A stretch of DNA of 63,884 nt, filler included, from Reclinomonas americana ATCC 50394 (GCA_048213135.1; 12 parts of 12 records of this genome joined end to end with filler, not necessarily neighbours in it); one strand, 5' to 3'. Counted from the first letter of the whole stretch, positions 13,201 to 62,967 are shown. The notes: generated from the letters alone by a model not told the origin. Made by a program: numbers and translations.

Positions 13201-16144
13201 CAAAAGGCACTGCATGAGATTGCCGCGTCGACAAAGGGCGAGCTTGTTGTGCAACGTGTGCTCCATGAGCGCGCTGATGCACCGCAACAGAAACATGCTA
13301 AAGATGCACATGGTGTCGTACTCGATCGCCGGTCGTTCACCGGCGTTGACTAGCGCCAAGTGCTCCAGAACCACATCCACCGCGTAGACCAGCGCTTCGG
13401 GAATCTCCACGCGGACAAAGGCGCGCGGCGCGCTGCGACTTGATTCCACTATGTGCGGCAGAGTGCGTGAGTTGGCGAGGGGGAGGTAAGTCGCGAGGTC
13501 AAGCAAGTGTGCGCGCACCTAATGACTCCCGTGCAGAGGGCATGGACGATTTGCTGTGAGGAGGAGAGGGTGGGTAGGTGGACTTGTAAGTAGGAGTGGT
13601 ACGGTGGCGCTTCGCACCTGAGATCTTTCGGAAGCAACACACTCAGCCGAAGCATGGAAAAGCACAGGAACAGAGGTCGGCCGTACTCGGCGAAAAACGT
13701 AAACAGCTTGCTCAGCTGTGGTCTGAGTGTGCGCACTCCAATTTGCGTGGTGAAATAACTCTGCGGGGTGCAAGGTCGCGATTCATGAGTGGTCGACAGG
13801 GAATGCGAAAGCAGACACGGACGAACGTGATTGCGCTCGTCGTCCTGCATGGCCACAGTCAGCACTGCGAATGCGGCCTCGAGCAGCTCCTCGCAGTGGC
13901 GGATGGTCTGAGGACTCAAAGTGCGACCCTGCGGAAAAGAGAGGAGTTGCATGAGTCTCAGTCGCTGTGCGCCAATGTGGAGAATAGCACAAGCACACGC
14001 AACTTGCTCCTCAATCGCCTGCGTCACCGTGTCGATGAGGACAGGGACGTGAATGAAGCCACCCCCGCTATCGCGGAATTCGGTTCGCATTAGCGAGTTC
14101 TGCATGCGAGTTGAGTGCGTGAGTGTTTGGTGCCGGCACTGCAACTGAACTCACCGATCGGAGGCACATGTACACCACGGAGAGAATGTCACGGCGGAAC
14201 ACCAGGACTCGGTCACTCAGCACCTCCTCGGACGTGCCGCACGTCTGCAGACGGAGTGAGCAGCAATATCAAGCAACCGTGTTTCGTACAAAAACACGAC
14301 GGACGCACCTGCATCTGCTGCAGCAAGTCACACACGACAAAGTATTGTGCGCGGTGGTCGTTCAAGCACATTTCAAAAATGATTTCAAAGCAGTGCGGTC
14401 GCACATCGGCATTCGGCAGCAAGCCGTACAGAGCCGTCAAGCCATCCACATCGTGAAAGTCGTTTCGAAACGCTTCTGCCGTGCGCAGCAGCAGGAGCAC
14501 GAGACCGAGAGTGTTGACCAGCACGCGCTCGAATCCAGCACGCACAGTTTGCGAGGCTGTTGAGGGAGCAGCAACAGAGAGTGAGGGAAGAGTTCGGATA
14601 GCATCTGCCTGCCAAGCAGCCCGACGTACCACCGGCACACATGAAATCAATCAGGGAGAGCAAGTGCAGCCACAGGCCGTGGCGAGCAAAGCCATTCATG
14701 AGTGGCGAGGTCATCGATGGATGCCTCAGCACCGATCGCAAGTACTGCACGATGAGTGCCAGACTGTCTTCACCGCGGTTCAGCAGCAGGTCAACCGAAA
14801 CCGCCTGCCATCTGCCTCATCCCGAATGCTGAGGTGAGAAACCGTGCCGAGGTGGACGCGAGGAAAAGGCATCCCGCACGCAACTGTTGTGACACCACGC
14901 CAGCATTGTCCTTGTGCAGCCACTCAAACACCATGAACAGCAGCGACACCAGCTTCTCCTTGGTGTCGACACTGAATCGATCAAAATGGACACACAGCTT
15001 GCGCAGCACGTCGTACTCGGTGACGCCGCGCAGCGCCTCGACGTGACCGTCCTCGCTCAAAAACGCCACAATGAGACGCACCACCGACTCACGCCACCAC
15101 ATATCGTCGACTCGTTCCACAATCAGAAGCAGTGTCTGCAGTGCGTCCTTGTTGGCGGTCGGCAGCGGCTGCGCCAGTGCCACGATCGACACGTCGAGTG
15201 CGAGACCTACATCGACGGAGTCAATCACAGGGGATGCGCCGCACGCAGGTGCATCATCGGTNNNNNNNNNNNNNNNNNNNNNNNNNNNNNNNNNNNNNNN
15301 NNNNNTTAATTAATTAANNNNNNNNNNNNNNNNNNNNNNNNNNNNNNNNNNNNNNNNNNNNAACACCACTGAACGAGACGCTTCCACGACCCAGCCTGCT
15401 CCAGCAACTCCAGTGCGCACCCATCTATCGCGCATAGACTGTACAGGAGAGCCGCAAACAGTCCAACTGCTTGCGTCTTGATCTCGCCAGGCGCCGCCGC
15501 CGCCGCCGACCCGTACTGCGCATACTTTACGGGCACGAAGAGATCCAGCGCATGCATACACAGGCCGGCCAGACCCGACAGCGATCCGGCTTGTGTGCGA
15601 CCCGATCGCTGCGCATAATGATGAATCAATATCGGGCATGTCGCTGCAGAGATAAGAACGTGCGTCTCGTCGAGAAACACCAAATGCACACAGACGAAGA
15701 GCGACCACAAACAAGAAGAGTGGAGAGAGAGGAATGACGCGGTGGAATCATCGGGGGAGCAGCGAGGAAGAATTCGACAAGCGACGTGCGAGGGATCGAT
15801 ACCATCTTTCGGTGGACGACGAGGATCTCAGTAGTGCACACAGAGCAAGAGGAGAGAGTGTGTGTGTGCGTGTGTGCGTGTGAGAAGAGAGAGAGAGTGT
15901 TGGGGAGAATGAAGACACGCAACTGCTTGATCGTACAGATCGTCAGCCTCGAGCACCACACGCTGCATGAACTCGACATCGGCGACCATCAGAGAGATCA
16001 CGCGCCATCGCGCTGCCTCTGCCGACTCGCATCGTTCCAGTGCCGTGCGAAGACGCAGAAGCAATGTATCCTGGCACAAGTGTGAGTTGGAGAGAGAGTG
16101 AGAGGAAGAGAGACCATGACAGAGACACGAGCAACTCATACCAT
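4233..16144 (-). CDS. Large BEACH-domain protein (helical N-terminal region, PH, BEACH, WD40). Many exons; inferred to span two assembly gaps
   Basis: BEACH motifs at ~5700-6850: [94 protein letters not shown]. PH-BEACH segment RRYLLRNTGLEI, preceded by RWKLD...RVRVRL. WD40 repeats (LTGHDGPVTSVVVS...IVSGSVDGTVIVWDL) at ~4250-5200. Continuity of the N-terminal part across the gaps, and the start at 16144 (ATG directly followed by a GT donor), are inferred. Confidence 0.85.
12380..12479. other. Artificial gap spacer (N44-TTAATTAATTAA-N44). Also at 15262-15361, 18028-18127, 20368-20467, 23752-23851, 26153-26252, 30327-30426, 38532-38631, 44207-44306, 61390-61489, 62724-62823
   Basis: The same 100-nt block each time, with stop codons in all six frames. 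ATG9 coding sequence lies on both sides of the 44207 spacer in correct order, so these are scaffold gaps of unknown true size. Confidence 0.97.
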
Positions 16145-18027: not shown

Positions 18028-18127
18028 NNNNNNNNNNNNNNNNNNNNNNNNNNNNNNNNNNNNNNNNNNNNTTAATTAATTAANNNNNNNNNNNNNNNNN
18101 NNNNNNNNNNNNNNNNNNNNNNNNNNN

Positions 18128-21100
18128 GGGTCCAGAGTGAGCTCCGTGGGCGAAGAGCCGACAGCCGATGCACCAGTCGGCGAGCCAACGCTGCCCGAGC
18201 TCGGACCTGTTCGACACAACCCCAACATAGGTTGGTGAGTGTTCAAATAGCGATCGATCATCTGCTGTTCACCAACGACAAACCTGGACCGTCGGTGGCG
18301 GACCGCTCGACCTCCAAAAAGTCGCGAGGGACGAACGCTCCGTGGCCGGAGCGGCACTGACCGTTGAGATCGTTGCCGGTGCTGAAGCTCGAGTCAAACT
18401 CCACGCCAACAGAGTCGTCGCCAATGAAGCACACCACCACTGCAGAAGTGGTGTGAGTGGTCACACCGCGCATGCAGACTTCTCCAACACAGCAGGCATG
18501 TACACATACCTCCACGAGCTCCGCTCGAGATACCCAAACCGTCCTGGTTGAGTACAACACGAGAGCCAATCATAACTTCGGCGGCGGCCGGACGCGCGGC
18601 CTCTGTGGCATCCGAGCCCAATACCTGCAGCTCATGCCGCAGCAGCGTGACGCCGCGGAACATGGGCGTCAGGCCGTTGAGACTGGTGAGAAGTTGCGAT
18701 GACTGTAGGAGGGGATGTGTGTCAGCAAATGGAGTGACCGCCTCGCATCATCTTCTTGCGTACGCACCACATCCATCTCGACACCAATGTGATCGCCATC
18801 AACAGCGCGCACAGCTGCACCAGCCTGTGTCAGATACAACAACGGATGAAGTGGTCAACATTGCTGACATGCTAAAAACTCAACTGCCACGCTCGCCACG
18901 CAAAAACTCGACACTCGAGCCCGACACCACCACGCGTACTCCCGCGTACAACGAATCGCGTCTGCATGTGTGCACACAGTGAGAATCCCATAAAGAGACC
19001 ACAAATTTCGTACGACAACTACCGCACCGAGAGTCGACCGCATCCACCAGGCGGAGCGACGAATACGCGTAGCTGCCCTTGATGCGCTCAAAGTCGACTT
19101 GGACCAGACACTCGCCCTCGCCCATGTACAGACGATTCTCCGTGTAGCCGGTCACCACACCGACGCCCAGGTGCGGTGCCGTGATGCACTCCACACGCGC
19201 ACCGATACGGAAGTGCAAGTGCGAGGTTGGGCGGTCGTTGCCACCGTATCCCACCGCATCACTGCCGTACATGCCGGCAAAGCCACGCGACATGTAGTAC
19301 TCCATGCGACGCTCCTCTTGGGAGAGTTCGGGACCAGCCTCAGCGGCCACGTTGATGAGGAAGTACGTCACACCGTGATCGCCGCGAATGCGCACGCGGC
19401 GGAACGGTTGAATCACACTCTCCAAGTCTGCGACGGCAATGATGATTGTGTGCGTGTGAGCATCCACACAAAGAAAAAGAAATCGGCGACGACGTCACAA
19501 TGGGAAATAAAACAAAACTTCGTGGACGCGCAGTCGGAGCACGGCGCGCAAACTGCAAGTCGGCCAAGTTGGCCACCGGCAACTCAATCGCTCCCTCGTT
19601 GTCCGTGTACGGCGGCGGCAGTGACGTGACAAACTTGAGCGTGCTCATCGGTACGCACAAGTGGCTGGCCTCGGCGTCGACATTACCGCAGGCCACAGAG
19701 ATCTTGCTCTCGCTCTGCTCCTCAATGAGGCGCACGGAGCACACGGTGTCTGCAGGTCGCGCAGAGTGAGTGAACATGGCACACGAAGGAGGAGCCTCTG
19801 TGTAAAACGCAACAGTCGCCAAGCATGGCGGAGAACCCGCTGGCAGTGGTGGTCACGGGCGACGGCGGAATGGTGGAACCAAGCCCAGTCTCGGCCACAT
19901 CCATGCAGGACTCGGCGCAGTTGGAAGCCATCAATGCCGTCTGCTGTGCCAGCAGCTGGCTACCGCTGCCGCTGCCACCGAGGGTGATGGTCGCGCCAGG
20001 GAATGGGCCAGCTGACGCTGTCGGGCCCACCGTAGACAGCACAAGACCGTACCCAGAGGACGAAGACGACGACGCGATTGACGACGGCACGTCGCATGCA
20101 TCGTCGTAGGCATCGCCACTGCCGTGGCCGTAGCTGCCAATGTCACTCGTACCAATGCCGCTGGAGGCATGCTGCGATCCACCCATGCGGCTGGCGCGCT
20201 CTGCGCCATGGCCGAAGGCGGCAGCAGAGTACGGACCTGAGCTGGCCTGTCCACTGCTGTTGTTGAGCGAGGACCGCCGAGCGATGAAAGCCTCCAACTC
20301 GGCAAAGGATTCCTCGAAAATGGGCGGCAGCGACTCGGACGGACCGAGTACCACCGACGTTGGCGCGNNNNNNNNNNNNNNNNNNNNNNNNNNNNNNNNN
20401 NNNNNNNNNNNTTAATTAATTAANNNNNNNNNNNNNNNNNNNNNNNNNNNNNNNNNNNNNNNNNNNNCTTCCTCTCCGCTGCTGCCCTCGGCGGCGGCCG
20501 TCATGGCGGCGACGGCAGCGGCAACAGTCGAAGCATTGGCTGCGGCGGCGGCGTCGGCGGCTGCGGCCTGCGACGACACGTCCAGCAGTCGGCAAATCAT
20601 CTGCAGACCACAGGCGTAGTAGTAGATGGACTGTTGGTTCTTGAGGGCGGTGTTGTAGAGGAACTCGGTGTCGGCGTGCGGCATCTTCAAAAAGCGCATA
20701 AACTCGCCGACAAAGTGCGCACGACCAGCGTGAGCGCGACCATCGAGCGCGTCGTAGTGGTTGGGAGGCGACGACTGCGGCGTATCGAACGGATTCGAGC
20801 CGCGATTGCCAGGCGTGGCGACCACATCCAACGACAGGGCGTGCACGGCAAATGTGCTGCGACGCGGGCAGCAATAGTGAGCAAAGGGTACAACTCGGCA
20901 CGCTGCGTTATTTCGACAATGCGACAGTGACTCAACTGCGCCGAGTTGATCGAGTTGGAGCGCAACGAGCTGATCGGCGTCTCCTCGTGATCCAAAAAGT
21001 CAAACGACGACGACGCCCGTCGGTTGTCGCCATGATTGTGTGTCTTTGGCACCGACTGTTCTCGCGGTGAGTGAGTGAGTGTGTGGACTGCATGCATGCA

Positions 21101-24100
21101 AACCAGCACGACAGTACGCACGTTCTTGAAGGCAAACACCAAGTCGCAGCGATGCAAAAAGTCGACTGCGTACTCGCGCCACAGGTCGCTGATAAAGACC
21201 TCGCGGCCCGACTCGGTCTTTTGGAACTCGGTGGCCTCCTCACTGTTCTTGAATTCCTCGTAGGCGCGGTAAATGTTCTGCACAACGCGTCGCCGTCAGC
21301 CTCCATTGGAGTCTTATCCCGTCCCATGTCGACAGAGAAGAGAGAGCACGCAACGTTTTTCTGGAAGTGCAGCTGGCGGTACACGTTGCGGTGAACATCC
21401 ATCCAAATGTCGTGCAGCTCGCGCGACACAATCACTTGGTTGTCGGTGAGACCCTGCTCCAGCTGCTCAACGACCGCATACACCTCCTCGTCGATGCCGA
21501 ATGCTTTCAGCACAACTGCCTCGGCGGCCAACATGCAGGCCTCGAAACCCTCGAGCAACGAATTCTGATTGTACAGGTTCTGTGTGCGGCACATGAAACA
21601 AGTCAGCAAGGCAAGACAAACACAAAGTTTTTTTTTTGGTCTACAACGAGGCGGACGCAACGGCAGGCAAGTGACGGCGAATCATGAATTCGGCAAACTT
21701 GTCCACTTGCTCGGCACGCCCGAGAGCCATCAATGTGCTGCGATCGTTGTGGTCCAACACTCCAAAGGCGCGACTGAGCATGCGATGGGCAGTCTGCAAT
21801 CACAACCACTGTGTGTGAGCACACTGAACTATCTTCGGCATACCACTACCGCAGTGTTGCCACGCAACCATCTTCTCCAGCTGGCGTTGAAGCAGGCCGC
21901 GAATGATCATCTCTCCAGTGACATAGTCGATCGGCTCGCGAGCAGAGAACACGTCGCGCATCGACATGGCAAAGTACGACGGTGAGCCGAGCGGAACCGC
22001 AGACGACGTGTTCCACGCCACACCGACGCTGCTGGACAAAATGTTGCCACCAAACGGCGGTCCGTTCGACGGGGTCGTGATGGTCAACTGCGACGGCAAC
22101 TGCGCGGCGAGAAGCGTACTCGGCTTCTCCGTGTTGGTGTCTTCCAGGCCACCGGATCCCAACATTCCGCTGAAAAAATCGACAGCCTGCTTGCGTCGCT
22201 CCTCGTGCAGCTCGTCCACTGCTGCCGGCGAGTCAGCAGCAGAAAAAAGAGAAGAAGGACAATGTGTGCATCCGCAACGTTCATCATCTTCGCCGGCCAT
22301 TGACGACGACGCGGGTGGTGGCGACAACAAGGCCGACGCAGGGTTGGAGGTGCCGAGCAACAGCACAGATGGCGCCGACAGCACGCAGCATTCAACCGCG
22401 GTAATAGTGTCGACTGGATTCTCCGTCGCCACAATGCCTTGGCGGGAACGACGCGGAGTCCAACGACGGCGCGGCAGATTGCTGGTAATGTCGCCACCGG
22501 CGCACTGCAGCTTGAAGATGCGCTCGTAAAAGGTCACCAACGGCTGCCCGACGACACTCCAATAGCGCAGTGTTTCTGGTGTCACGTCGCTCGAGTTGGC
22601 GGCATACTGTGCAAGATTGCCGGCCAAGTCGGCCAGTGACGGCACCGTGGCCAGCGAGTACAGCGCGAAACCATCGACCACCGGCGACACAATGCCAAAC
22701 AGGCAAATGGCGTGCTGTTTGGCGGGCAGCAAGTTTAGTGCACTGGTACTAGTTTTTTCGTAACACTGAGCAAAACGAGAGTCGCAACCTCTGTGCTCGA
22801 GCATTGTGCGAGTTCGCGGTCCACCGACAGCAGGTACTGCACGAGGATGGCCGCGTACTCGGAAAGGTTGCCAACAAAGAAGGCGGCAGCGGCCAGCTCC
22901 ACCAACTCCTCCAACAATATCTGTTGGAACTCAGTCAGCGATTCCGGATCCTCGGCTTGCAACCGCGCCAGGTGCAGCATGAACGAAAAGGCGGTCGGAT
23001 CCTTGGCTGAGCAGGCCACAATGTCCTGCCAGAATGAACACGGTGGTGAGATCATTCACGCACATCCTAATCGACGCGTGATGAAAGAAAGAGGTGACGC
23101 ACGGTGAACATGATCTTGCGCAGTGTTTGCGGGCTGTTGAGCGCCAAGCGCACGGCCTTGAGCACGTCGGCCTTTTCTTGCATTGTTGCAGACTCGGCGC
23201 AAGCGACAGTCAACATTTCCACAAATTTGGCCGGCGTGTACGTCAGCGGGAACAGCGCCAGGCGAGTTTGCTGCATGGACTCGTACAGTGCCTGCATTGC
23301 AACAGTGAGCATCGCCACAATTGCAGCGTGACAAAAGACAGCAGGCAGAGGGACCTTCCACTTGGCACGGCCAGCCAGCAGTGTGTCGAGTGCCTCGAGT
23401 GCCAGCATCAAGTCACCCGACGCATCCTGCATGCCCGAGTCGACATAATCCTCGACAGCTGCAGTCGACGATGCGTTTGTGTTTGCGCTGTCGTCGCTGA
23501 GGAGTCGGCGCACAATCTCCAAGCATTCGCTGCAAATGACCTCAAAGTACACGTCTGTGCGGAGCCAAAAAGGTCAGTCCAGTGTCACCTTCAAGACAGA
23601 AAGACAAGACAAACAAGAGTATGTGCACAAACCCTCCAGTCCATGTCGCCGACGATAGTCAATCGTGTGCAACAGCAGGGAGGCCACGAACGAGGCCACG
23701 CCAGGAGCGTTGATGAGATTCTACAACACGCATGGGGAGGTTCAGCTTCGTNNNNNNNNNNNNNNNNNNNNNNNNNNNNNNNNNNNNNNNNNNNNTTAAT
23801 TAATTAANNNNNNNNNNNNNNNNNNNNNNNNNNNNNNNNNNNNNNNNNNNNAACACACATACATGGACATTCACAGTCGCCAAACCTCTACAGTGCGTGC
23901 ACGCTCCATGGAGAGGCTGTCCCGGTTGATGGTGACAATGTGGCACCGCTGCGTGGTGCAGTGAATCTCCAGCGTCAACTTGCCCAGCTCGTCGAACACG
24001 ATGCGTGTGCGCAGCACTGGACCCACGTCGAAGGCAAACTCCTGCACCGCACAACAGCACGTGTGAGTGCTTCTCCGTGGCATTCAGCTCTGACACAAGA

Positions 24101-26152: not shown

Positions 26153-27265
26153 NNNNNNNNNNNNNNNNNNNNNNNNNNNNNNNNNNNNNNNNNNNNTTAA
26201 TTAATTAANNNNNNNNNNNNNNNNNNNNNNNNNNNNNNNNNNNNNNNNNNNNCGACGTGGAGGAGAGCAACGAGCTCGCACACAATCGAACAACACGCGC
26301 ACAATCACAGACGGGGAACAGAGAGATAAAAAGAGAGAGAGAGAGAGAACAACTGTACCTGTGCCAGTGGGGACGACGGCATGCGCCGCGGTCGTGAGGG
26401 ATCGTCCATGCTGGCGATCACTGGCTATGCAGCGTTCTTTTTTGTCACGCTCGCACACGTACGTGGACTGCTTCACAGAGAGTGCACGCTGCTGTGGTCA
26501 ACGGTCGAGCACGAGATCGCACAGCAGCGATGGGCGAAGGGAAGGGGAGGGGAGAGGAGGAGGGGACGCGCGCGGTTGATTGAACACGAGAAGCGATGAC
26601 CGTTACACGTTCCGCATTTTCGCACATTTTCATTTCATGTGACGAGAGAAAGCAGACGGGAAGCACAACGGGAGAAGCACAGTGTGTGTGCGAGAGAGAG
26701 AGAGAGAGAAACATCACGGCTGGTACGGGAAGAATGGCTCTGTCGCGTGACGGCCGAGGGAGTAGAGAAGGATGGGAGAAAAAACACAGACTAACACACG
26801 CACGGACACAAGGGTAGCCGGCGACACACGCAGAGTTTGGAGGGTCAGAATAGACATAAGGAGGAACCGCGAAAGACGCAAAGGATAGAAGCAGTAACTA
26901 TTGACGACAAGGTGGGAGAAGGAAATAAGGGGAGCAGAAGCACGTTTGCAGGCTAGTGTAGATCTCCTCAGTGGTGGAAGTACCAGTGGAAGCTCACGCA
27001 CGCAGGATCAGGGTGTTACGTTTCTGGCCACCTTTCATGGCCCCCCTCTGCACCCAATCTCGACCGCGCGCTTAACACACCGTTGTAGCCGACATTCGTA
27101 CACCGCTCGCCAAATTCTCCGCGCCCCATTCCCTGGGGCCTCACGCTCGCTTGCTGGATCGATGGCGGACCATCTTCATCCTCCTTGTCCTGACTTGACT
27201 ACAGTGCGCTCCGGGTAGAGTGTGTGCGCGTGTGTCTGTGTGGCGGCGGCCGTTGATGCGGCCCC

Positions 27266-29479: not shown

Positions 29480-30280
29480 ATGGCGACAAGACCACGCACC
29501 GATCTCTTTATGCAGTACCGAGCGTTGCGTTGCCTCTGCCTCTGCCTCCTCTCACTGTGCACACACTCTCTGTGTGCGTTCGTGCTCTGGTGATGGCCAT
29601 GGCCACCACGTTTACAGAAGCACTCTTGCGTGTGTGTGACTTCTCTCTCTTACTCCTATCGTCTCTCGTTGTGTGTGTGTGTATACGTGTGCATGTGTCG
29701 CTGTCATATGTCATCATCTCACACAGACACACAAAACGCGTGTCGTGTATTTCAGCACTCTCACTTTCCTCTTACACACACACAGTGCGGCACTCACGCC
29801 AGCTGGTACGGGCATTGAGATGACGGGTGGTGGCAAGGGTGCGGGTGGACGAGTGCGTTTCACTGGTCGCGGTGGCGACACGGATGGTCTGTTGGAGGCG
29901 GATGCGGCAGAGCGCGGCATGCGTGGTGTGCGCTCGGATAGTGGCGAGCCAGTGTATGTGCCGGGCTTCATGCGCATGCGCGAGGCCATTCAGGAGGGCA
30001 TGAAGGACATCCAAACACAGAGTTGCGACAGGCTGCTCTTCGTTTTCTGTCCTCATTTATCTCGTGAGCCAACGACGTGCTTTTTGCACGTGCAGTGCGG
30101 AGGCTGAAGGACCTGTACAAGCAGCAGCTGCAGCCGCAGTTTGATGCGTCGGACACGGAGCAGCAGATTGACATTGTGACACGCGAGATCAAGACGCTGT
30201 TCCGCGAGTGCGAGGCGAATGTCAAACTGATTTGCACGGAGCAGGAGGGCGAGGTGTTGGAGACAGGTGAGGCTCCGTGA
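29480..30280 (+). CDS. STX16: Syntaxin-16/Tlg2/SYP4-type Qa-SNARE, 5' part, truncated by the gap
   Basis: N-peptide MATRPRTDLFMQYR (compare MATRNRTxLFxxYR), then Habc helices IQEGMKDIQTQ|MRRLKDLYKQQLQPQFD...EQQIDIVTREIKTLFRECEANVKLI. Confidence 0.85.
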
Positions 30281-30426
30281 GGTTTCGTTGTCCGTGCACT
30301 CGCCCTGACTTCTCTCTCTCTCCCCGNNNNNNNNNNNNNNNNNNNNNNNNNNNNNNNNNNNNNNNNNNNNTTAATTAATTAANNNNNNNNNNNNNNNNNN
30401 NNNNNNNNNNNNNNNNNNNNNNNNNN

Positions 30427-33400
30427 GTCCAGCAAGTGGAAGCACGTGTGTGCCACCGGCACGTGATCGGGAGGCATGCCGGAGCCCTGCACTCGCAGCA
30501 CCCCGTCGCTCGGCAGCCCCGGCTGACCGGTGACGTACTCGAGGAAGAGGCGCAGTTCGAAATCCGTAAAGTTACTCAGAACCTGACGACACACAGTGGA
30601 GTGAGTACTGCGCGTGCAGACGTTGTTGCCACTGGAGTGACGCAACATCGATCAGCATTTGCGGCACCATGCTGTCTTCGGGGAAGCCAGAGAATCGAAG
30701 CGAGTCCATCAGCGACTGCGTGTCAACGCGATCGTCGCTGCACAGCAGGCACATCCACTCGAACGCTCCCATGCCCCGCAGTACGTCTCGGTCAAAGTCC
30801 TGCTCCATGCACTCGAACATACCAAGACGCACAATCTGCACGGCTCGGTCGCGTCCCTCGCCCAGCAGATACGTACGAATGCGGCTGCAAACGTATGCCA
30901 TGCGATTCTGCTCCGTCACGGCGTCGCATTCGGCTGCGCACGCGCATGGAGTCACAATCAGCAATGATGAACAGACGACATGGAGTGGCACGGCGTACCG
31001 ACACCCGGCGGCAAGAAGGCATCAGGGATGCCCTCGAACGTCATGCCGTCGACGCAGTCGACCAGAATGAACCGCAGCGAGCGCACCAGCGTCGGATCCA
31101 CCGGCTGCAGTGCACGCAACAGCAGTGCACACTCGGTGGCCACGGCCGTGGTGCCGTGACACAGTCGGCCAACTGTGAACATTTTTCCAGGGAGTGTCAA
31201 CACACAGACCTGTGGTTTGTTGTGCCTCGCATTGTGCAACGCAACTCGGCGACGACTCGGACAGCAGATCCCAAAACACGGGCGCCAGCAGCGGTGAGGG
31301 AACTTTGCGATCGTCGGCCAGCGCCTTGGCCAGAGCTCGCCCAAAGGAGCGCAGGGTGCGCTCGACTTGTGGCCTCAAATGAGCCGACACACTGTGCAGT
31401 GGCACCGGCAAGTACACCTCGCTGTCGTCTTCCCGTGTGAATGCTGGCGACTCGCGACACACGCCGCGGAAGAACTGCACAAACATCTCTGACGTCGGGC
31501 CACCTGCATTGTTGGAGTGAGACAACATGGCGCACGGCGGGGGTGGAGCAAGATCGTCGTGCCACGCGCCTTCATCGATGCCCTCCTCGCCCTGGAACGC
31601 GACTCGCGTACGTGCCAGCCACCGACTCGGTTCCATGTCGCCAAAGCGACGCACAACTGGGCGGAGAACAACGGGTGTCGTTAGTTTTGCATGCTTCAGG
31701 CACACGACTGAACACACAAACCATCGTCCACCAGCGCCGAGCGCCTGATGCGTAGCAACAGTTGCGGAATGTCGCCGGATCCCTCTCGCTGCACACGATC
31801 GTACCTGGCCTCTGTGAGCGCCCCGCGGAACAACTGCACTCGCAGTTCGAGTGCCTCCAGTTGCGGGAATGCGCAGATGAGCTGTGTGCGATTGGCCAAA
31901 AAGTATGGATGGCACAAGGCGTCGGCCGCCGGGATTCGTTGGTGCATGGGTGCGAACTGCACAGACGACACAGGAATGTGAGGGCGACTGCGAGTGCACC
32001 ACTTTGGTCACACGTATACACACCAGCGACTGCAGCAGAGCAATCAAGTGTGGCGAGTCACGACAAGCCGACGCGTCAAACTGTGCCTTGCTTGACACGG
32101 GATCCACCATGACGTGTGCGTCGACGCCGGCGTATGCGCGGAACAACATCACCCCAAAGGCCCACATGTCGCGCTGCTCAAAAAACGGTGAGCATATCTT
32201 TCAACGACAGTGTCACGACGCAGTGTACGCACCGACGGCATCGACTGCCCCTCCCCGAGAATCAACTCTGGCGCCACGTATCCGGCCGTGCCGCGGAAGA
32301 GAGCTGCACGCAACCACCGAGTCAGAACTGTGTAAGAAGTGAAACAAGCCACGCTGTTTCGCCAGCGACTGACCTGTCTGCGTGCCTGTTTGCGTGAGCG
32401 CAAAGTCCGAGGCCTTGGCGATATCAAAACTGTGGGGTTATCAGCAGCAGCAGGAAGCGTGTCAAACAACACAGCGCTTCAACGAGTGGGAGCTGGGGGT
32501 GGCAATCACGAAACTCGACAATCACTGGTCGTCCGTCAGGCTGCATCACCACGTTTTCGAGCTTCAGGTCGGCATGCACCACGTCGCGCTGGTGCAGAGC
32601 GTGCAAGCCCTACACAATTTGCACGTGTTCAGCAATCGACAATTCGCACGAAAGCCTGTAACGAAGAGCAATTCGCGCACCTGCAGCACTCCGTAAAACA
32701 CCGCGTGAACCTCGTCGTCACCGCGACGGCCGGCAAGCAGCCAGTCGCGCAAGTGACATGACCCGAGATACGGCAACCGCACCACCACTGTGCCCTCCTC
32801 CTGCACTCATCGCGTTATTTCCTACGTAATGCACGCGCAAGAGCACCAGTGCTGCGCAACTTCATCAGCGAAAAACACTCCTTCCAGCTTTACAACATTC
32901 GGGTGGCGAATGTTGGTCAACACGCTCAGCTCTGTCGCCAGTCACTCGTGAGAACACACGCAGCACAGAAGGAAGCAGCGCCTCGTGAGACCTTTGAGCA
33001 GTGCGCGCCTCGCGCGTGCCTCTTGCACGTTGAAGAGCTTCAGCACGCACACAGTCCCATCATGACGATATCTGCCGACACACCAACACGAGTCATTTTC
33101 CAAGCACACTGCGCACTCTAATGCAGACACACGCACACACACACCTGGCCTTGTGTACGACGTTGCGCGAGCTGAGGCTCTGCAACACCTCGAAATCCGC
33201 CAGTTTGGTGCTGCTCAGGAACAGCGGGCTCTCCTGGAGCACTCGAGGCAGCCGAGCGGCAAACGGGTGGCTGGCCGACGCCGACGCATCGCCCGCATCC
33301 ACTGCGGCCGCACGCAAGGCGAACTCAGGCACCAGTTCCGATGCATTTTCCAGCTCCAGCTGCTTCTGTAGCGAACGTGACAGCTCGGCCTGCGCTTCGG

Positions 33401-36243
33401 AGACTCGCAGTCGTGCGCTGTCCACCTGCCGCTCCAGTTGTTGCAGCAAGTCTTCACTAGCTCCGTCGCGACGCCGCCGACGCACCAGAATGCGTGCCTC
33501 GTCCAGCTCGATTGCCGCGTCCTCCACACGGCGGCGGGCGGCGGCCACCTCCTGCAGAATCGTGTCGGCCATGTCGTGGGCGACAATGGCCTCGCGAAGT
33601 CGCGCGGTCTGCATGGTGCATTCGCTGCAAGAAACATGCCAAGCACTTCAGTGACGACGCTGCACGGGAGAGCGGGGATCATTTTTTCTATGCAAAACTC
33701 ACCCCATCAGCGTCTGCTGCTCCTCGGTCCACCGGCGACGATGCGCACGTGAGGTGTGAATCTGCGCCGTACGTGAGCGAAAGTGCTGAAGGGATAACAA
33801 GCGAGAGGGGGGAGAACACGACGTGCCTTGAGAATGGCGGCGCGTAGATCGTCGTGGGTCACTGGGAGAGCACGAATCGACGCCTCCAGTGTCTGCATTT
33901 CATGCTCGATAGCTCGCATCAAGGCCGCAGCGCTGCACGTCTCCGACTCCAGAGACTCGTCGGTTGTCATGGCGCAGTCCCGCAGACCACTAGCGTGTCT
34001 GCGTGCCCATTGCTCCAGCCGTGTGTGGACGTCGGCCAAATTGACTGCGACGGAGGCGTCGTGAGATGACGGTGAGGGTAAGGAAAGGATTGGAGAGAAA
34101 CGGTACCATTTTGCAGGGCGGACGACGTGGGCGTAGGCGGTCCGTCGGCATCCTCAAAGCCACTCATGTCCACCTGCGGCAGTACGGTCACCAGCTCCAG
34201 GCCTGTGACGCGCGTCTGCAGACAGTCGACGACGTCTTGCAGCGCGCGCTCGGCGGCCACATATTCCGCCCTCCGTTGCTTGCACGCCTGCATGACTTCG
34301 TCGGTCCACGTACCGCATTGTACCACCACTTGCCGCGCGCGCAGCGACGCTCTTCTTGCGCTCTCCATGCGCTCCAGCGATAGCGCCTGCGCCTTGCGGA
34401 GCGCGACTGCAAATTCGTCGTCCGCGCCGGCCACCTGCCGCAGGGGGGAAATTCAGGCGCTACTTCCACTCATTAGGTCTCTCGCACAGTCGACGCAACG
34501 TCGGGATCGGTAGACAGCAGTCGAAGCAAGTGTGGAATGCGGAACCGTCGTAATCGCGCGCGCAGCTCGAGTACGCGTTCCGTGTGTCGCTGCAGGGTCT
34601 GCAGACGACGTTGTGACTGCTGCATGGCATGCAGTGCGGTCTCCAGTGGCGACACATTGGCACGAGCAGAGAGCTGAGAGTCTGTGTCCGCGGTGCGCAT
34701 GTGTAAGTCACGCTGTCAATGAATATGCGTCTCCGTATCATGCTCACCCGGTGAACTTGGTCCCTCCTTTTGCGCCTTGTTGCGATCGAGGTACGGCTGG
34801 AACACTCGATCAACATCGCCACCGCACTCGACGGCCACCAGCGACTTGTTGCCGCGCACGGCCTCCTCCAGCGCGCTGAGTGCACCAGCAGCGACAAACG
34901 GATTCACTGCGGGGGAACCAAAAAAGGCGGTGAGGCAAGAGAGAAAGGAGTGCAGCGTGACCTGGCCACGAAACTCGACAGATTGAGCGACGTGAGCGAC
35001 GTGTTGAGGCCGAGGGCACTGGCAATGTGTGCCACTCCACCGGCCCCAATCTGGTTGCCGCGGAGATTGAGTGTGTGCAGGCCACCATTGTAACTAACGC
35101 AACGAGAGAGAGAGAGAGAGAGTCAGGCCAACGCACTCGGAGCGCAAAAAAGAGCGCAAGTACACCAACCGCAATGCTGTGCCCAGCGCCTCCGCGCACT
35201 TGTCGTTGAGCTGACAAGCGGCCAGCTGCAGCGACTCGAGCGTGTGATTCGTCTGCAGCGCCTTGGAGAGCGCCAGCACACCGCTGACTCCGATGCCATC
35301 CTCCTCTGTGCCACACACACGAGTCACAACACGAGCGGGTAGTGACAGGTGCATACGCAGTGGCTCCACCCACCGACAAGCGAGAGGTGATGCAGCGAGG
35401 AGTTTGCTCGCAACGCGTTACCGAGCAACTCCATGCCAGTGGCCGACACTGCACATCCTCGCAGAGACAAGGAGCGCATCGTCCGGTTCAGCGACAACGC
35501 CACCGCCAGTGCTTCCACGCCCTGATCCACCATATTGTACGACTGCAACGACAGCGCAGTCAACGTGCAATTCTCACGCAGCGCATCGCCGAGCAGGTCC
35601 ACTCGCTGAACGCGTCGTCGATTGCCTGCACACCAAGCTGCCGGGTGAGAACGAGACAATGCACACAGACTCTCTCTCATCTTCCGCGCACACACACCCC
35701 ACAGTTCCAACGAGCGGAGCACCATGTTCACGCGCAGTGCACTCGACAGCTGCAGCGTGGCCTGATCACTCAGCAAGTTGCCCACGCCCAGATTGAGGTG
35801 CGTCAGCGAGGTGTTCTCTCGCAGCGCCTTGAGCACCTGCTCCACGCCACTATCCATGAAATTGTTGTCTGCATGCGCATGTCAGCACAGTGACACACAC
35901 GCGCACACACATGCGCGAAACTTCCAAGCAAGAGCGTGGCAAGCGACGTCGACTGGCGAATGCTCCGCGCGAGGCACTCGGCGCCACTCTCGCCCAATCG
36001 CACTCCGCTGACATTGACGCTTTCCACGCGACACTCGGGTCGACTGAGCAGCTCACACAGCTGCTCAAACTCGCCACCCGACACTGCCCGATGCGTCCAC
36101 TCAATCTGCACGCATGCACAATGAGTGTCGAGTGAGCGCATTTTGAGAAGAAAAGCAAGGCGACTTGCCTGTCGCACAGTGCCGCGTGACACCTCCTCCA
36201 GTGTGCGCACACACGAGTCGGGCGAGAGCGCGCGTGCGGCCAT
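30427..36243 (-). CDS. LRR (RI/NLRC3-like) - coiled coil - Ser/Thr kinase-like - HECT E3 ubiquitin ligase fusion protein; extreme C-terminus in the gap
   Basis: LRRs at ~34790-36243 (ALRENTSLTHLNL, ALQTNHTLESLQL, LHTLNLRGNQIG). Kinase at ~31880-33210 (CVLK, LTNIRHPNVVKL, HADLKLEN, VIVDFDIAK, RGTAGYVAPE, DMWAFGVML, ALCHPYF). HECT at ~30427-31760 (LRIRRSALVDD, VAFQGEEGIDEG|GPTSEMF, FGRALAKAL, LFLEYVTG, PVAHTCFHLLD). Confidence 0.85.
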
Positions 36244-36394: not shown

Positions 36395-38448
36395 ATGCCA
36401 CGCGTTCGCTTTGTGGTGCGTCGGCAAGTGTATTTCGGCGAGTGTGTGGCGGTCATGGGCAGTGTGAGTGCGCTGGGTGCGTGGTCCACTGCAGCTCCGT
36501 TGCCGCTCACCTGGGCGCCTGGTGATGTGTGGCGTGTGGAGTGTGAGGTGAGAGAGTGATCTATGTCGTCGTCGGAATATCTTTCCTGTTGTTGTCGTCG
36601 TGGTTGCTTACATCGAGGCGGTGTGCAGATCAACGAGGAGGTGACCGAGTACAAGTACGTGGTGTTGAGAAGACCTCCGGTGGCCGTCGGCGCCAGTGCC
36701 GGTGCAGTGGAGGTGCGCGCGTTATTTCGCTGACTCTTTCTCTCCCTCTGTCGCTGTGCTCACCTTCGCCACCGCCAGCTGCAATGGGAACCCGGTCCCA
36801 ACCGCTTGCTCCGCCTCGGCTCGGAGACACCGAATGCGAGCGGCATTATTGTTGTCAGTGACGACTGGGTGAGCTGCTCTTCTCTTTGCGCGTGTGTGTC
36901 GCCGCCCCCTTCCATCTGCTGATCCGTGCGTGTTACAGCATGCGGTGTCGACCAAGGTGGTTTTCGAGGTGCAGAAGCACGTCGAGTATGGCGAGAGCCT
37001 GGCCGTGTATGGATCGTCCAAGCGGCTCGGTGAATGGAATCTCCTGGCGCCCGTGCGCATGCAGTGGTGCGAAGGTGACGTGTGGCGATCGCCGCCTGTC
37101 GAGGTGCGTTGATTCCCTTGCTGCGAGGCGCTGTATTTGGTTCGAGAACTGAGTGACTGACTGATTGCGATCGTGCAGTTCTCGGCCGAGGAGACCACGT
37201 TTGAAATGTCGTACAAGTACGCGGTGGTTCGCATTCTGCCCAGTGTCGACAGCACGGCAGTGGATCCGGGTCCGACGTGGGACGTGCGGTGGGAGAACGA
37301 CGTGAATCGCGTCGTGTTTATCGATCGGTGTGCCGACATGCCGGGTGCGCGCGATGCGGAGAGTGGTGTGGTGACACTGCGCGACACGTGGCGACCGCAC
37401 CTGCGACTTGTGCTTGTCGAGTGCCAGGGTCGCGTGCAGTTTGGCGAGCGACTGGCCCTGGTCGGCTCGTGCGCGACCCTCGGGTCGTGGGACGTGCAGC
37501 AATCGGTGCCGATGGAGTGGAACGAGAACGACGTGTGGACGGTGCGCGTTGCGGTGCCGGCGGGGGCACACTTTTACTTTAAGTTTGTGGTGGTCACCGA
37601 CATGGAGCTGAATCGCTCGACCAGCAACGGCGTGACAACTGCTACGGTGAGTGCTATTGCATGCTACGCGCACGAAGTTTCCTTGTCGCTCACCTTCAAG
37701 TTCCCAACAGTGGACGGCGCCGGTCAACGTGCTGTGGTGGGAGCCGGGTGACAACCACGTGGGCTTCCTCAGCGACGAGGGTGAATTCGGGTGGCACACG
37801 TCCTTCCGGCCGTCTACCGAGGCCGAGGAACAGGAGGCGTGGGCCGTTCACCGACAACACATGCCGCCGCAATCGCCGCCAATGTCACCGTCGCGGACTC
37901 ATCGCTCACCGCACCGCTCGCCATCGCGCTCACCACCACTGGCACCCGTGCACACAGACGACGGCTCCGGCAGTGGTGGTGGCGGCAGTTCTGGTGTGCC
38001 TCCGTCGCTCTCGCTCTACAACTCTATGGTGGTGGCGGCCGCTCTCCGCTCACACGCCGACGACACGTTGCGTTTGTTTCTCCGGCCTCACTCCCCCACT
38101 ATTTACTGTGTTGCTTACCAATACATGCAGGCCGTGCACGTGCTCCCGGTGCCGCGACGGCCAGCACGGCATGCTGATTTTGAGTCCGACATCCACCACA
38201 GCACAACCACCGCACGACTTGTCACCGCAAACAGCAGCTCGACTGGCGATTCCGTCGCTGATGCCCAAGTTCCCCGTGCACGTGCGCTCGTGGGAAGTGC
38301 GACCGGCCGCCTCGTCGGCTGTGCGTTTGCGTTTCGACGTCAGGTGAGCGAGACGCCATCTCCTCCCCTCCCCGTCTCACTCTCCCTCTTCCTCACATCC
38401 AACGACGTGCAGATTAACCCCTCCCCCACTGCTGTCGGTAGAGACTAG
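36395..38448 (+). CDS. Protein with three tandem CBM20 starch/glycogen-binding domains and a Ser/Pro-rich tail
   Basis: Three repeats of V.F...(F/Y)GE.(V/L)A(V/L).GS...LG.W.......W...DVW...(Y/F)K(Y/F)...WE, with N(R/H) shortly after, at ~36395-36870, ~36940-37395 and ~37400-37760. Confidence 0.88.
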
Positions 38449-38631
38449 TGTAGAAGCAGCAGCAGCAGGGGAGAGTATGGCAGTCGCCGCTCCGTTTGTT
38501 GTGCACGTCACATAGTAAAAAAAACCAAGCCNNNNNNNNNNNNNNNNNNNNNNNNNNNNNNNNNNNNNNNNNNNNTTAATTAATTAANNNNNNNNNNNNN
38601 NNNNNNNNNNNNNNNNNNNNNNNNNNNNNNN

Positions 38632-41665: not shown

Positions 41666-44306
41666 TCACTGGGGATGAGCCTCGTGGTACTGCGCAACAC
41701 ACAACAACAACATGTGTCAGACAGGTCAACGCTTCACAGCAAACAGCAGCAAGCACGACGCACTTGTTCCAGCAGCGTAAACATGCCACGCTGTCGCTCC
41801 GATGAGGTGAACGAGTCCGACTGAGACCGAGAAGCACGGTGAGGTAAAAGTGTACGCGCCACACTAAGAGAGAGAAAGAGAAAAGGAAACGCACCAAGAA
41901 GCCGAGCTCGTGAGATTGTGATGAGTAGCCACTGGAACCCGATCGATCTGGCAGCACAAGAAAGTGAGCAGCGCGAGCAAGGCTTTCACTGCACCGCAAC
42001 ACGACACACTCACCGACGCTAAAGAGCGAGCGACGAGCACGATAGCCATCGCGAGCCTGTGCGTAGTGATCCGAGCCAATCATGGACGAATTGACCGAGC
42101 TTCCCTGCACGGACAGACAAACCCAGAAGATTAAACACTATGCACGATCAACCTGAAACAAACACACAATCCGTGCGTACCATGTCGGCAGGCGGCAGGT
42201 ACGACTGCTGCTGCTGCTGCTGTTGTTGCTGCTCGTGCTCGGCGTGAAGCAACGGCTCGCCTTGAATTTCGGACTGCGTCAGCAGGCGACCATCCGCCAA
42301 CCCAATGGAAGGCGGCTGTTGCTGCTGCTGGGCGAACAACATCTCCTCCTCCTCCAAGTCCTCGGCTCCCAACAGCGGCGCGTTCGGTGGTCTGGCCACG
42401 TAGGAGTCCTGCGGGCCAAGGGCAGCACCAGCGGCAGCAGTAGCGCCACCGGCAGCGGCATGCGACCGAGCTGCCAGCGGTACCGCGCCTGGTGACACAG
42501 CATCCGGGAACGAATCGGCAAACTCAAAATCGTCGAATGAGCCCGAATGCGCGACATCGACATCGGCACCGGCAGCACTGCTCTCCGCTGCTGGGCGCGC
42601 TGTTGCACGCTGTTGCTGCTGAGGCTTGGTTTGCGGAGATGGCATCGGCGACGGTCGCTGCAGCATACGGCTGCCCTCCACCGAAAAGATGACAGGCATT
42701 GGCACAAACTTCAACAACACCAAGGTCAGCGACTTGAAGAGGGCAGGGGGGGGGCTGACGCAAAAACATAAGACAAACCGGCTGTGCAAATGCTGGTCTT
42801 GTGCCGCGAACGACTTGCGGTTGTGGTGCGGGCGGAGCAGGTGCAGGCGCAGGTGCTGCAGGCGCTTCTACTGGCTGCACAGGTCTCATCGGCACGTGTG
42901 GCGCCGGTCTGTTCATGCCAACCCGCACTTCAGCCAACGGCAACACCATACTGTCGTCTTGCGGCGGCTGTGCGCGACGAACTGGGCCTGGGCGATCGCC
43001 TGGTGACGCGTCGCCAACGTGACGAGCCTGCAGAACAGGAAACGGCATGTCAACAAAAGAGAGAGAAAATACAGGAAAGTAAAATAACAAAAGTGCACGA
43101 AACCACAGCGAGTCCAACGCCCTCCTCGGCCATATTGAACGATCCGTGCTGGTCCCATCGCATTCTGTGAGCGAGTGCACAAGGTGAATGAAATAGAAGA
43201 ATCGGAAGCACGACTTCATCGGTTGCACATACCCTGGGAAGCGATTGGCCAGTGCCGGTGGTACATAACTCGGGCTCGTGGGTGCCACGCCGCTCGCCGC
43301 CATCATCATCGATGCGCTCACCGGCGACAGCATGTCGCGCGGGAACTGCTGTCGCAACTCGAATTCGGCATCCGGATTCTGCTGCGCAAATGTGCTCAGG
43401 CTCTCCATCAACTCCTGGCCGCCACTGTTGGCGGGCGGGATCCACTGCGGGTGGTTGGCGAGGAAGTTGATGAACGACTTTTCCATCTTGCCGTGGCGCG
43501 AGTGGCTGAGACGGCCGCCGTCGCCGCCGACTCGAGAACCAAACTGTGTGAATCAGCAGGTGCACCGTTATGAGAAAGGCAAGCATGGCAAAACAAAAAT
43601 GGACACGGAATCAACGCACTCGCGGGTTGCCGTGGCGGTGGAAGTTGAAGGTCGAGAAGGAACACACGTAGCCGAGACCCTCCACCTCCACCGAGTTGTC
43701 GCGCACAAAGTCGACCATTTTCTCTAATGTGCGCAACCGCGTCAACCACAGCTCGGCAGCATTTTCAGAATACGGGCAACTCACCGGCACTGTTGGGCAT
43801 CGAGAACCAGAAAATGAGCGGCGTCAACACCACACTAGCCATCTCTTGGATGAACAACTCGACGCGGTAGCGGAAGAGCTCAGTAAACTGACGCAGAACC
43901 TGTCAATGCAAGCGAGACAGATGTGAGGAAGGCAGGAGCAAGAATTATCACAAGAGTGCACTACCACACACACCTCGTGGCTGCCGGGCTGGAGACGCCA
44001 CTGCTTCGGCACATAGTGCGTGTAGCTAATGACCTGCTTCAAGTACAGCTCGGGGAGGAACACAAACGACTCGTCGCCGACAGACTTGCGCAGCGCAGCG
44101 AGGCACGTGGCCAAGATCACCAAATACCACGCCAGCGGTCGGTCATACAACTGCACACAGACTCAGTCAGACGACACGAGCGAGAGAAAGAGAGAGAAAG
44201 AGAGATNNNNNNNNNNNNNNNNNNNNNNNNNNNNNNNNNNNNNNNNNNNNTTAATTAATTAANNNNNNNNNNNNNNNNNNNNNNNNNNNNNNNNNNNNNN
44301 NNNNNN

Positions 44307-45857: not shown

Positions 45858-45939
45858 AGTACGCGCACGCGCAAAGAACGATACGAAAAACGAACAGAAA
45901 TAGCTGCCTTCGTCGATCGGTCTTTGCTCTGACTGTGTC

Positions 45940-46944
45940 ATGGAAGACGACGCGCTTGTGAGTCGCCTGGAGTGCGCTGGTGTGGAGGTGCTGTTGTATC
46001 GACCGGGTATGCTGGTGGCGGTGAACAAACCGGCGGGAATGCTGTCGGTGCCGGGTGGTCGTCGTCATTGCGGCGATTGGCGATCGCGACAGGAGCAGTG
46101 GGCGGCGTGTTTGCAGCTGGAGAGCACGCGACAGCGCGTGTTGTTGTGTGTGGAGGGTGGGGATGGGTTGTGCTGGTGGCAGCGGTGTGTGGACAAGGTG
46201 GTGCGTGAGGCGGTGAACGTGCCGCGGCGTGCTGATAAGTTTGTGGCGAGCTGTGTGCGCGCGTGGAAGCGCGAGTTTGCGGCGGTGGCGCGGGAGGATG
46301 TGGAGCAGGTGGCGCGTGTGGTGTTTGATGTGTGCGATGAGTGCATGGCGATCATGGAGGAGGAGGAGGAAGAAGCGTCGGCAGTGTCGGTGTTGGAGCT
46401 GTGCGGGCGTCATGCACATGCAGTGCATCGGTTGGACATGGAGACGTCGGGTGTGTTGCTCGTGGCACTGGACGCGCGTGTGGCGGCGGTGCTGTGCGAG
46501 CAGTTCCGACGAGATGATTGCGTGCAGAAGACGTATGTGGCGGTGGTGGAGGGCGACGGCGAGTGGGAGCACGGCCAGAGTGGTGTGTGTGAGCAGCCGA
46601 TATGTGCCGAGCCTGAACGCCGGCCGCGGCAGCAGCTCGATGTGAGCGGCGGCAAACCCGCGGTGACACGATGGGAGGTGCTGCGGCACGACGTCGACAG
46701 TGCGACAACTCGGATGCGCCTGCAGCCGATCACGGGTCGAACGCACCAACTGCGCGTGCACATGGCGTTGGCTCTGCGACACCCCATCGTGGGAGACTCG
46801 CTGTATGGTCGAGCGGCGGAGCGGCTGTTTCTGCACGCTGAAACGCTGGAGCTGTTTGATGTGCGTGAGGCGGCCAGTGGCTCCGGATGGGAGGTGGCTC
46901 ACGATGCCCCCCGTCTGCGTGTGGAAGCCGTTTGCCCTTTTTGA
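45940..46944 (+). CDS. RluA-family RNA pseudouridine synthase; single uninterrupted ORF
   Basis: VAVNKPAGML (motif I), HRLDMETSGVLLVA (catalytic Asp), KTYVAVV, TGRTHQLRVHM, PIVGDSLYG, RLFLHAETL. Confidence 0.93.
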   Translation: MEDDALVSRLECAGVEVLLYRPGMLVAVNKPAGMLSVPGGRRHCGDWRSRQEQWAACLQLESTRQRVLLCVEGGDGLCWWQRCVDKVVREAVNVPRRADKFVASCVRAWKREFAAVAREDVEQVARVVFDVCDECMAIMEEEEEEASAVSVLELCGRHAHAVHRLDMETSGVLLVALDARVAAVLCEQFRRDDCVQKTYVAVVEGDGEWEHGQSGVCEQPICAEPERRPRQQLDVSGGKPAVTRWEVLRHDVDSATTRMRLQPITGRTHQLRVHMALALRHPIVGDSLYGRAAERLFLHAETLELFDVREAASGSGWEVAHDAPRLRVEAVCPF

Positions 46945-61389: not shown

Positions 61390-61552
61390 NNNNNNNNNNN
61401 NNNNNNNNNNNNNNNNNNNNNNNNNNNNNNNNNTTAATTAATTAANNNNNNNNNNNNNNNNNNNNNNNNNNNNNNNNNNNNNNNNNNNNGAGACTTGATG
61501 AGTGTGTGTGTGTTCTCGGACGCGAAGCAGCACTGAGTATGTGTTGCCTCAG

Positions 61553-62723: not shown

Positions 62724-62967
62724 NNNNNNNNNNNNNNNNNNNNNNNNNNNNNNNNNNNNNNNNNNNNTTAATTAATTAANNNNNNNNNNNNNNNNNNNNN
62801 NNNNNNNNNNNNNNNNNNNNNNNACCACCAGCAGCACCCTCACCTGTGCGTGCGCGAGGGGAGAGTGAGAGAGAGAGAGAGAGAGAGCGGAGAGAAAGAG
62901 AGGCGAGAGAGTGCGTCATGTCGACCACGTTCACACGCAGCGCCCGCGTGCACGTGCGCGGTGGACT

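Follow-up and report, generated by a model that had tools for sequence, protein, structure and literature searches.

A Reclinomonas americana gene predicted to place leucine-rich repeats in front of a protein kinase and a HECT ubiquitin ligase

We analyzed a window of 63,884 nucleotides (nt) of DNA from Reclinomonas americana ATCC 50394 (GCA_048213135.1), which consists of 12 contigs of ~1-17 kb with N44-TTAATTAATTAA-N44 spacers, 11 in all, between them. An 8.1-kb contig (30427-38531) carries on its minus strand a gene that runs from an ATG at 36243 down to the contig end at 30427. Its coding signal and domain matches indicate that the gene is real and that it encodes, in this order, leucine-rich repeats (LRRs), a linker of helices, a kinase domain, and a HECT ubiquitin ligase domain. 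We think it probable that this is a single gene of a compact, intron-rich genome, that its protein of at least 1408 residues has ten LRRs, ~430 helical residues, a non-RD kinase, and a HECT domain, and that it belongs to a class of proteins built from a repeat module, a kinase, and a HECT domain.

The gene model was built from the stop-to-stop frames of the minus strand, after which successive coding frames were joined by frame-compatible GT/GC...AG pairs. The spliced model (ATG 36243 to 30427) has 25 exons that total 4224 nt, or 1408 codons with zero stops. An initial annotation of this DNA had joined exons in frame from ATG 36243, and the open chain of 25 exons bears this out; every element that it listed was found where it had been placed on the minus strand. 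Read from high to low coordinates, exons 1-7 are at 36243-36169, 36105-35922, 35868-35698, 35625-35374, 35305-35170, 35093-34975, and 34906-34748. They are followed by exons 8-13 at 34681-34488, 34434-34107, 34044-33818, 33761-33703, 33624-33145, and 33071-32992, exons 14-19 at 32931-32861, 32800-32681, 32609-32515, 32429-32374, 32303-32233, and 32173-32024, and exons 20-25 at 31956-31722, 31656-31570, 31503-31246, 31172-30999, 30933-30647, and 30582-30427.

The 24 introns are 53-85 nt long. GT-AG ends are found in 22 of them, the remaining two being in-frame GC-AG candidates, and the acceptors are CAG in 22 cases and TAG in two. The first GC-AG candidate, intron 1 (36106..36168, minus strand, 63 nt), contains CTCAC/CTCAT branch-like motifs and leaves the frame open if retained. 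The second, intron 21 (31504..31569, minus strand, 66 nt), lies within a G-I-D-x-G-G motif of the HECT N-lobe and has CTCAC 17 nt 5' of its acceptor. GC donors appear to be used at a noticeable rate in this organism (two candidates among 24 introns), and the intron at 31569-31504 is confirmed by homology, as described below. For intron 22 a 37-nt alternative (31209-31173) was dropped in favor of a 73-nt intron (31245-31173), because all of the other introns are at least 53 nt long and because the similarity of a homologous fragment, P0001, ends just past the residues that precede the chosen donor.

No ATG of the open frame precedes the start codon (36241..36243, minus strand), and a divergent gene on the plus strand has its ATG (36395) 151 nt away, so that an additional upstream exon is unlikely. 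This neighbor (36395-38448, plus strand) encodes at least three CBM20 starch-binding domains (E values of 6e-08, 2.5e-08, and 3.6e-16), which were found in three of five open reading frame (ORF) pieces. The short upstream region common to the LRR-kinase-HECT and CBM20 genes suggests a very compact genome.

The gene as a whole, to the contig end (30427..36243, minus strand), is supported by the spliced model, a codon-usage frame test, GC periodicity, and a branch-point motif. The GC fractions at codon positions 1, 2, and 3 of the exons are 0.69, 0.45, and 0.73, and that of the introns is 0.55. In 24 of the 25 exons GC is lowest at position 2, with a smaller margin in exon 14 and a value nearly equal to that of position 1 in exon 17. 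In a leave-one-out log-likelihood test of codon usage the model frame ranked top of three in all 25 exons. A branch-point-like sequence, CT[ACG]A[CT], was found 3-40 nt 5' of the acceptor in 16 of the 24 introns (both GC-AG introns included) versus 26 of 238 control exonic AGs. These data bear on the possibility that the gene is an artefact, be it a pseudogene in decay or a contig of chimeric origin. The assembly is highly fragmented (contigs of 1-17 kb), and the gene's own protein was not found in the protein collection searched. However, splicing leaves 1408 stop-free codons, codon usage is uniform across the 25 exons, and the domain boundaries coincide with no break in composition, so that we consider an artefact very improbable.

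The N-terminal module is an array of ten RI-type LRRs (model residues 52-335; 34839..36027, minus strand), delineated by Pfam LRR_6 matches, the repeat register, and exon phases. The ten units have 28-29 residues each and form a tandem LxxLxLxxN/C pattern, in agreement with the roughly ten RI-like repeats proposed at the outset. Pfam LRR_6 (PF13516) matched the ORF at 35324-35881 with 29.4 bits (cut-off 23.4; E value 6.4e-07) and a second piece with 21 bits. The Pfam and PDB scores given here are those of unspliced single-exon or ORF translations rather than of the spliced domains. Introns 2-6 interrupt the array, and four of these five (introns 2, 3, 4, and 6; 35921-34907) fall at residue 8 of the repeat in phase 1. 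A common repeat position and phase is not expected of splice sites picked by chance. The pattern is that expected if the repeats multiplied by exon duplication.

The array is followed by a linker of ~430 residues rich in Ala, Arg, Leu, and Glu (model residues ~346-780, exons 7-12; 33189..34808, minus strand), which was characterized by composition, AlphaFold2, and Foldseek. No Pfam family was found in the linker upon scanning of its ORF pieces and exon translations. AlphaFold2 run on single sequences predicted two long helices for exon 12 (residues 2-53 and 57-96; pLDDT >90 over residues 21-90) and two for exon 9 (residues 2-40 and 45-75; pLDDT 70-88), consistent with the long helical linker that had been described. 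Foldseek searches with the exon 12 model returned only generic helical hairpins (E value ≥ 0.09). The coding nature of this region was assayed with a codon log-likelihood ratio for which the LRR, kinase, and HECT exons served as the training set. In each of exons 8-12 the model frame scored highest (+15.2, +34.1, +12.1, +0.8, and +69.1, respectively), with exon 11 (59 nt) barely positive. The opposite strand gave one positive frame in each exon (+14.2, +7.2, +5.2, +5.9, and +34.6), scoring below the model frame in four of the five and above it in exon 11. As the opposite strand is also positive, the codon score alone does not fix the strand.

The junction between the LRR cap and the linker is intron 7 (34682..34747, minus strand, 66 nt, GTGAGC...CAG), which was placed with the aid of the codon score of exon 8. 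The in-frame stop at 34716-34718, to which the initial annotation had drawn attention, sits inside this predicted intron. If intron 7 is retained the frame ends at 34716, and an in-frame ATG is present in the next frame just past the stop. The locus would then comprise two genes, one for an LRR-only protein ending at 34716-34718 and another for a separate helical-kinase-HECT protein starting from the ATG near 34700, the intron 7 junction being a prediction from the genomic sequence. Against two genes, only ~13 nt separate the stop from the ATG, which leaves no space for a 3' untranslated region plus a promoter, and intron 7, which has a GTGAGC donor and a CAG acceptor, is with its 66 nt no outlier among the other 23 introns (53-85 nt). 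Moreover, the joined frame of exon 8 has a positive coding score (+15.2 versus -6.5 and -24.7). That coding sequence resumes at 34681, within 35 nt of the stop and in the frame predicted by splicing, counts for a single gene, as do the presence of the kinase end and the HECT start in one exon (exon 20) and the ungapped alignment of fragment P0002 across the next two junctions (see below). Two genes therefore seem quite unlikely, and the predicted splicing makes one LRR-kinase-HECT gene the most likely arrangement.

The protein kinase domain occupies model residues ~781-1028 (exons 12-20; 31900..33188, minus strand) as judged by Pfam and PDB matches and by the positions of its motifs. These follow the canonical order: VCVLK (802-806), E822, HADLKLEN (897-904), DFD (917-919), APE (946-948), DMWAFG (961-966), and R1016. 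The catalytic residues are present: K806 of strand beta3 (codon at 33040-33038), E822 of helix alphaC, H897, D899, and N904 of HADLKLEN (32576-32553), D917 of the intron-split DFD (32516-32423), and the APE of 946-948 (32274-32266), all on the minus strand. The arginine of the HRD motif is absent and the kinase is thus of the non-RD type. Pfam Pkinase matched exon 16 with an E value of 3.7e-05 (profile positions 110-135). Weak colinear matches of 11 bits each were obtained for exon 18 with Pkinase (E value 0.25, positions 157-173) and for exon 14 with PK_Tyr_Ser-Thr (E value 0.24, positions 53-72). In PDB, all 27 matches of exon 16 (E value ≤ 0.01) and all 18 of exon 18 (E value ≤ 10) are protein kinases aligned at matching positions, and the two sets are colinear, as in GRK1 (residues 301-327 and 349-365). 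The top PDB match of exon 16 is 9gmp_A.

The HECT domain (model residues 1075-1408; 30427..31761, minus strand) was recognized by Pfam, PDB, and the homologous fragments P0001 and P0002, and consists of a divergent N-lobe and a C-lobe that extends to five residues beyond the catalytic Cys. Pfam HECT (PF00632) matched exon 25 with an E value of 1.1e-08 (35.5 bits versus a cut-off of 23.9; profile positions 222-279), and the match to exon 24 (E value 0.014; positions 133-220) is colinear. All 23 PDB matches of exon 25 are HECT ligases, the best being the E6AP C-lobe (3.9e-05), with the HTCF motifs aligned. The HTCF motif (model residues 1401-1404; 30450-30439, minus strand) thereby aligns with the catalytic-Cys motif of E6AP and gives C1403 (codon at 30442..30444, minus strand) as the catalytic Cys; the motif is intact, as had been claimed for it. 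An ESM Atlas search with exon 24 returned only TPR-like bacterial clusters (0.87-0.90, low recognition) and was judged uninformative.

Kinase and HECT domains meet in exon 20 (31722..31956, minus strand). According to the spliced model and the P0002 alignment, this exon carries the kinase C-terminus (subdomain XI), a spacer of ~45 amino acids, and the first residues of the HECT N-lobe, so that the kinase end does run into HECT within one exon, as first noted. An exhaustive HMMER search with the ORF at 31025-32200 gave two relatives at E ≤ 0.001, P0001 (70 amino acids) and P0002 (147 amino acids), which are 62-63% and 44-45% identical to the model, respectively. Both come from other assemblies, and their source contigs (773 and 1209 nt) are too short for gene context. 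When P0002 was aligned with the unspliced ORF, a gap fell exactly over the 22 codons of the GC-AG intron at 31569-31504. Aligned with the spliced model, P0002 is ungapped over residues 1079-1192 (45% identity) and crosses the junctions of exons 20/21 (residue 1088) and 21/22 (residue 1117). As the P0002 alignment starts inside exon 20 (residue 1079), the kinase-HECT fusion is supported by one exon plus two homology-confirmed junctions. After splicing the HECT N-lobe shows the G-I-D-x-G-G motif and similarity to fragments P0001 and P0002 only. No relative of the gene was found in two metagenome scans.

At its 3' end the gene meets a contig boundary. Position 30427, which had been taken as the limit of the gene, is instead the contig end, which is adjoined by an N44-TTAATTAATTAA-N44 spacer (30327-30426, no strand). 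The gene continues beyond this point, and the last ~30 HECT residues and the stop codon are absent from the sequence. No HECT tail-like motif was found elsewhere in the window. As the contigs are joined by spacers, adjacency across any spacer does not imply adjacency in the genome, and contig ends cut genes. On the plus strand of the neighboring contig an open frame of coding appearance (30068-30280) heads toward position 30326, where that contig ends, and has no relation to the HECT gene beyond the spacer.

Several observations weigh against the assignment given above. The exon chain is a prediction from genomic DNA, and no full-length relative was found in three word-indexed protein searches (with the junction exon, the fragment alignment, and the catalytic-loop ORF). 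The HECT N-lobe alone gives no Pfam or PDB match, and the C-terminal tail of the domain is cut off by the contig end five residues past the Cys. Pkinase (PF00069) stays below its gathering score on every single exon (the best being 23.7 versus 31.7 bits), the low profile scores being due to the splitting of the domain over eight small exons. No PDB kinase match was obtained for exon 19 (which matched nothing), exon 15 (a chance match to collagenase), or exon 20 (two annexins, E value 0.9). The specific link to TKUL, a Leishmania kinase-HECT protein discussed below, is confined to the 31-residue exon 16, whose top PDB match, 9gmp_A, scores only 1.5 bits over Akt. Finally, the Gly-rich loop contains no glycine and reads S-x-S-x-x-N at model residues 784-789, a register set by eye from the spacing to K806.

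A glycine-free ATP loop means that the kinase may be inactive. The same single protein would then contain a pseudokinase that serves as a scaffold or regulates the HECT ligase independently of phosphorylation. All three glycines of GxGxxG are replaced, the HRD arginine is lost, DFG has become DFD, and the C-lobe exons are too divergent to match any kinase. On the other hand, the beta3 Lys, the alphaC Glu, the Asp and Asn of HxDLKxxN, the metal-binding Asp, and APE have all been retained, and the Leishmania kinase-HECT protein is an active kinase according to the available part of its description (10.64898/2026.05.08.723729). We regard a pseudokinase as a doubtful but serious possibility.

The other features of the window lie outside this gene. 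The remaining spacers are at 12380-12479, 15262-15361, 18028-18127, 20368-20467, 23752-23851, 26153-26252, 38532-38631, 44207-44306, 61390-61489, and 62724-62823. The GC fraction along the window is 0.53-0.62, and an Rfam scan of the window gave no match. Among 24 ORFs tested, five had a family at E ≤ 1e-5, and the ORFs of the other contigs include BEACH, WD40, peptidase M16, pseudouridine synthase, and HATPase_c domains. On another contig, ORFs with a BEACH domain (2.6e-29) and with WD40 share the minus strand at 4737-7049 and are probably a single BEACH-WD40 gene. In the ESM Atlas a BEACH ORF of another contig matched generic eukaryotic BEACH clusters only. Plus-strand ORFs with an RluA-type pseudouridine synthase domain (45904-46944, 4e-30) and a HATPase_c domain (57758-58552, 1.1e-12) are also found on other contigs.

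For the LRR-kinase-HECT protein, the mechanism that seems most likely, by analogy with TKUL, is one in which the kinase would gate the HECT ligase of its own chain and the LRRs would bind a target. Kinase gating is proposed because the TKUL ligase is reported to need autophosphorylation. The LRR array would bind a protein target or a regulator, and the kinase would phosphorylate its own chain and possibly the bound target as well. Phosphorylation would switch on the HECT domain, which would accept ubiquitin from an E2 on Cys1403 and then pass it either to the target or to itself. We infer in this scheme that either enzyme is active, that the kinase gates the ligase, and that the LRRs have a binding partner.

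The initial annotation likened the protein to NLR-type immune receptors. In such a cytosolic sensor, ligand capture by the LRRs would lead to oligomerization, phosphorylation, and ubiquitination as a defense response. NLRs have LRRs of the RI type (LRR_6), which also occur in many non-immune proteins. Their presence here is consistent with a sensor of this kind, and the repeat-phase introns would permit repeat shuffling. The kinase is non-RD, and such kinases are described as being linked to innate immune signaling across kingdoms in the accessible text of one study (PMC8463890). However, no NACHT, NB-ARC, other STAND NTPase, Roc-COR, or death-fold domain was found by Pfam in 18 ORF pieces or 14 exon translations, and the linker is predicted to be plain helical hairpins. 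Moreover, a tblastn search of the 12-contig window with the model returned only the gene itself and no paralogue. With the NTPase domain not found and the linker predicted to be plain hairpins, the proposed likeness to NLRs draws support from the LRR type and the non-RD kinase only, and an NLR-like sensor is unlikely. An NTPase-less innate-immune switch of protists, in which the LRRs would sense a foreign or danger ligand and the non-RD kinase would act on HECT, the front module having been swapped on an ancient kinase-HECT core, seems about as improbable. On present evidence the protein does not look like an immune receptor.

Fusions of kinase and HECT domains have been described in protists, as seen in the parts of the following reports that were available. 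The 2005 trypanosomatid kinome includes LmjF35.4000 of Leishmania major, a kinase listed as unique that also has a HECT domain and three TPR motifs (PMC1266030). Grau-Bove et al. reported in 2013 unusual protein kinase domains in some GL-Bikonta HECT proteins of Naegleria gruberi and Ectocarpus siliculosus (PMC3673628). The Leishmania protein now goes by the name TKUL (HECT12, LmxM.34.4000). A 2026 preprint presents it as both a HECT ligase and a protein kinase, states that the two activities matter in amastigotes, and states that its autophosphorylation is required for ligase activity (10.64898/2026.05.08.723729). The hect12 null mutant loses fitness (PMC7647121).

A kinase-HECT protein fronted by LRRs was not described in the literature searched, which was judged mostly by titles and abstracts and did not cover the supplement of PMC3673628; in the main text of that paper (supplement aside) the term LRR has zero occurrences. 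A brown-alga preprint was set aside because its only match was to the program name 'Hectar'. The initial annotation overstated the novelty. The kinase-HECT core was already known (2005 and 2013) and has been studied (TKUL), whereas the LRR-fronted form was not described in what was searched. Prior characterization of the architecture, which the annotation had named as grounds for abandoning its proposal, was likewise found in that literature for the core and not for the LRR-fronted form. In the gene described here the kinase lies upstream of HECT on one predicted polypeptide (exon 20 and P0002), the arrangement that marks the class. It is best filed as a member of the protist class of repeat module, kinase, and HECT proteins in which the front module is an LRR array. 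Only the LRR front end looks new; the fusion of kinase and HECT does not.

In proteins of this class phosphorylation and ubiquitination, both major systems of protein modification, are combined on one chain, and only the Leishmania member has been studied. That LRRs stand in place of TPRs in an unrelated eukaryote with many introns suggests that the family is modular, the kinase-HECT core being kept and the targeting domain exchanged. If so, the family would be a natural series for studying both the gating of a HECT ligase by a kinase in cis and its targeting.

Among the closest known systems is TKUL/HECT12 of Leishmania, in which a kinase and a HECT ligase also share one chain behind an N-terminal repeat module. 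The repeats there are TPRs, whereas here there are ten RI-type LRRs plus ~430 helical residues. This comparison is of described architecture rather than of sequence, and the gene here has 24 introns. The likeness to the GL-Bikonta kinase-HECT proteins extends to the HECT N-lobe, which here is too divergent for Pfam or PDB; membership in the GL-Bikonta family is defined by trees, whereas our gene is likened to it by domain content. ROCO proteins such as LRRK2 resemble the predicted protein in that a single chain carries cytosolic LRRs and, downstream of them, a protein kinase. They differ in that Roc and COR domains lie between the LRRs and the kinase, where helical hairpins are predicted here, and in that HECT is absent from ROCO proteins. 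No Ras, Roc, or COR family was found in the linker, either at E ≤ 10 for exon 12 or at E ≤ 0.01 for the ORF pieces covering exons 8-12.

Two further systems combine LRRs with ubiquitin ligases. In the bacterial LRR-E3 effectors (the IpaH/SspH NEL family and XopL), the ubiquitin ligase is fused to LRRs that bind the target. The NEL-family ligase is Cys-dependent and is autoinhibited by its LRR. These effectors have unrelated ligase folds (NEL or XL-box rather than HECT), lack a kinase, and are secreted, and hence the analogy is one of logic only. In plants, the receptor-kinase/E3 pairs typified by BAK1-PUB12/13-FLS2 bring an LRR protein, a kinase, and an E3 together in one pathway in which the kinase phosphorylates the E3. 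Each of those components is a polypeptide of its own, the ligases are of the U-box type, and the LRRs are extracellular, in contrast to the single, cytosolic HECT chain predicted here.

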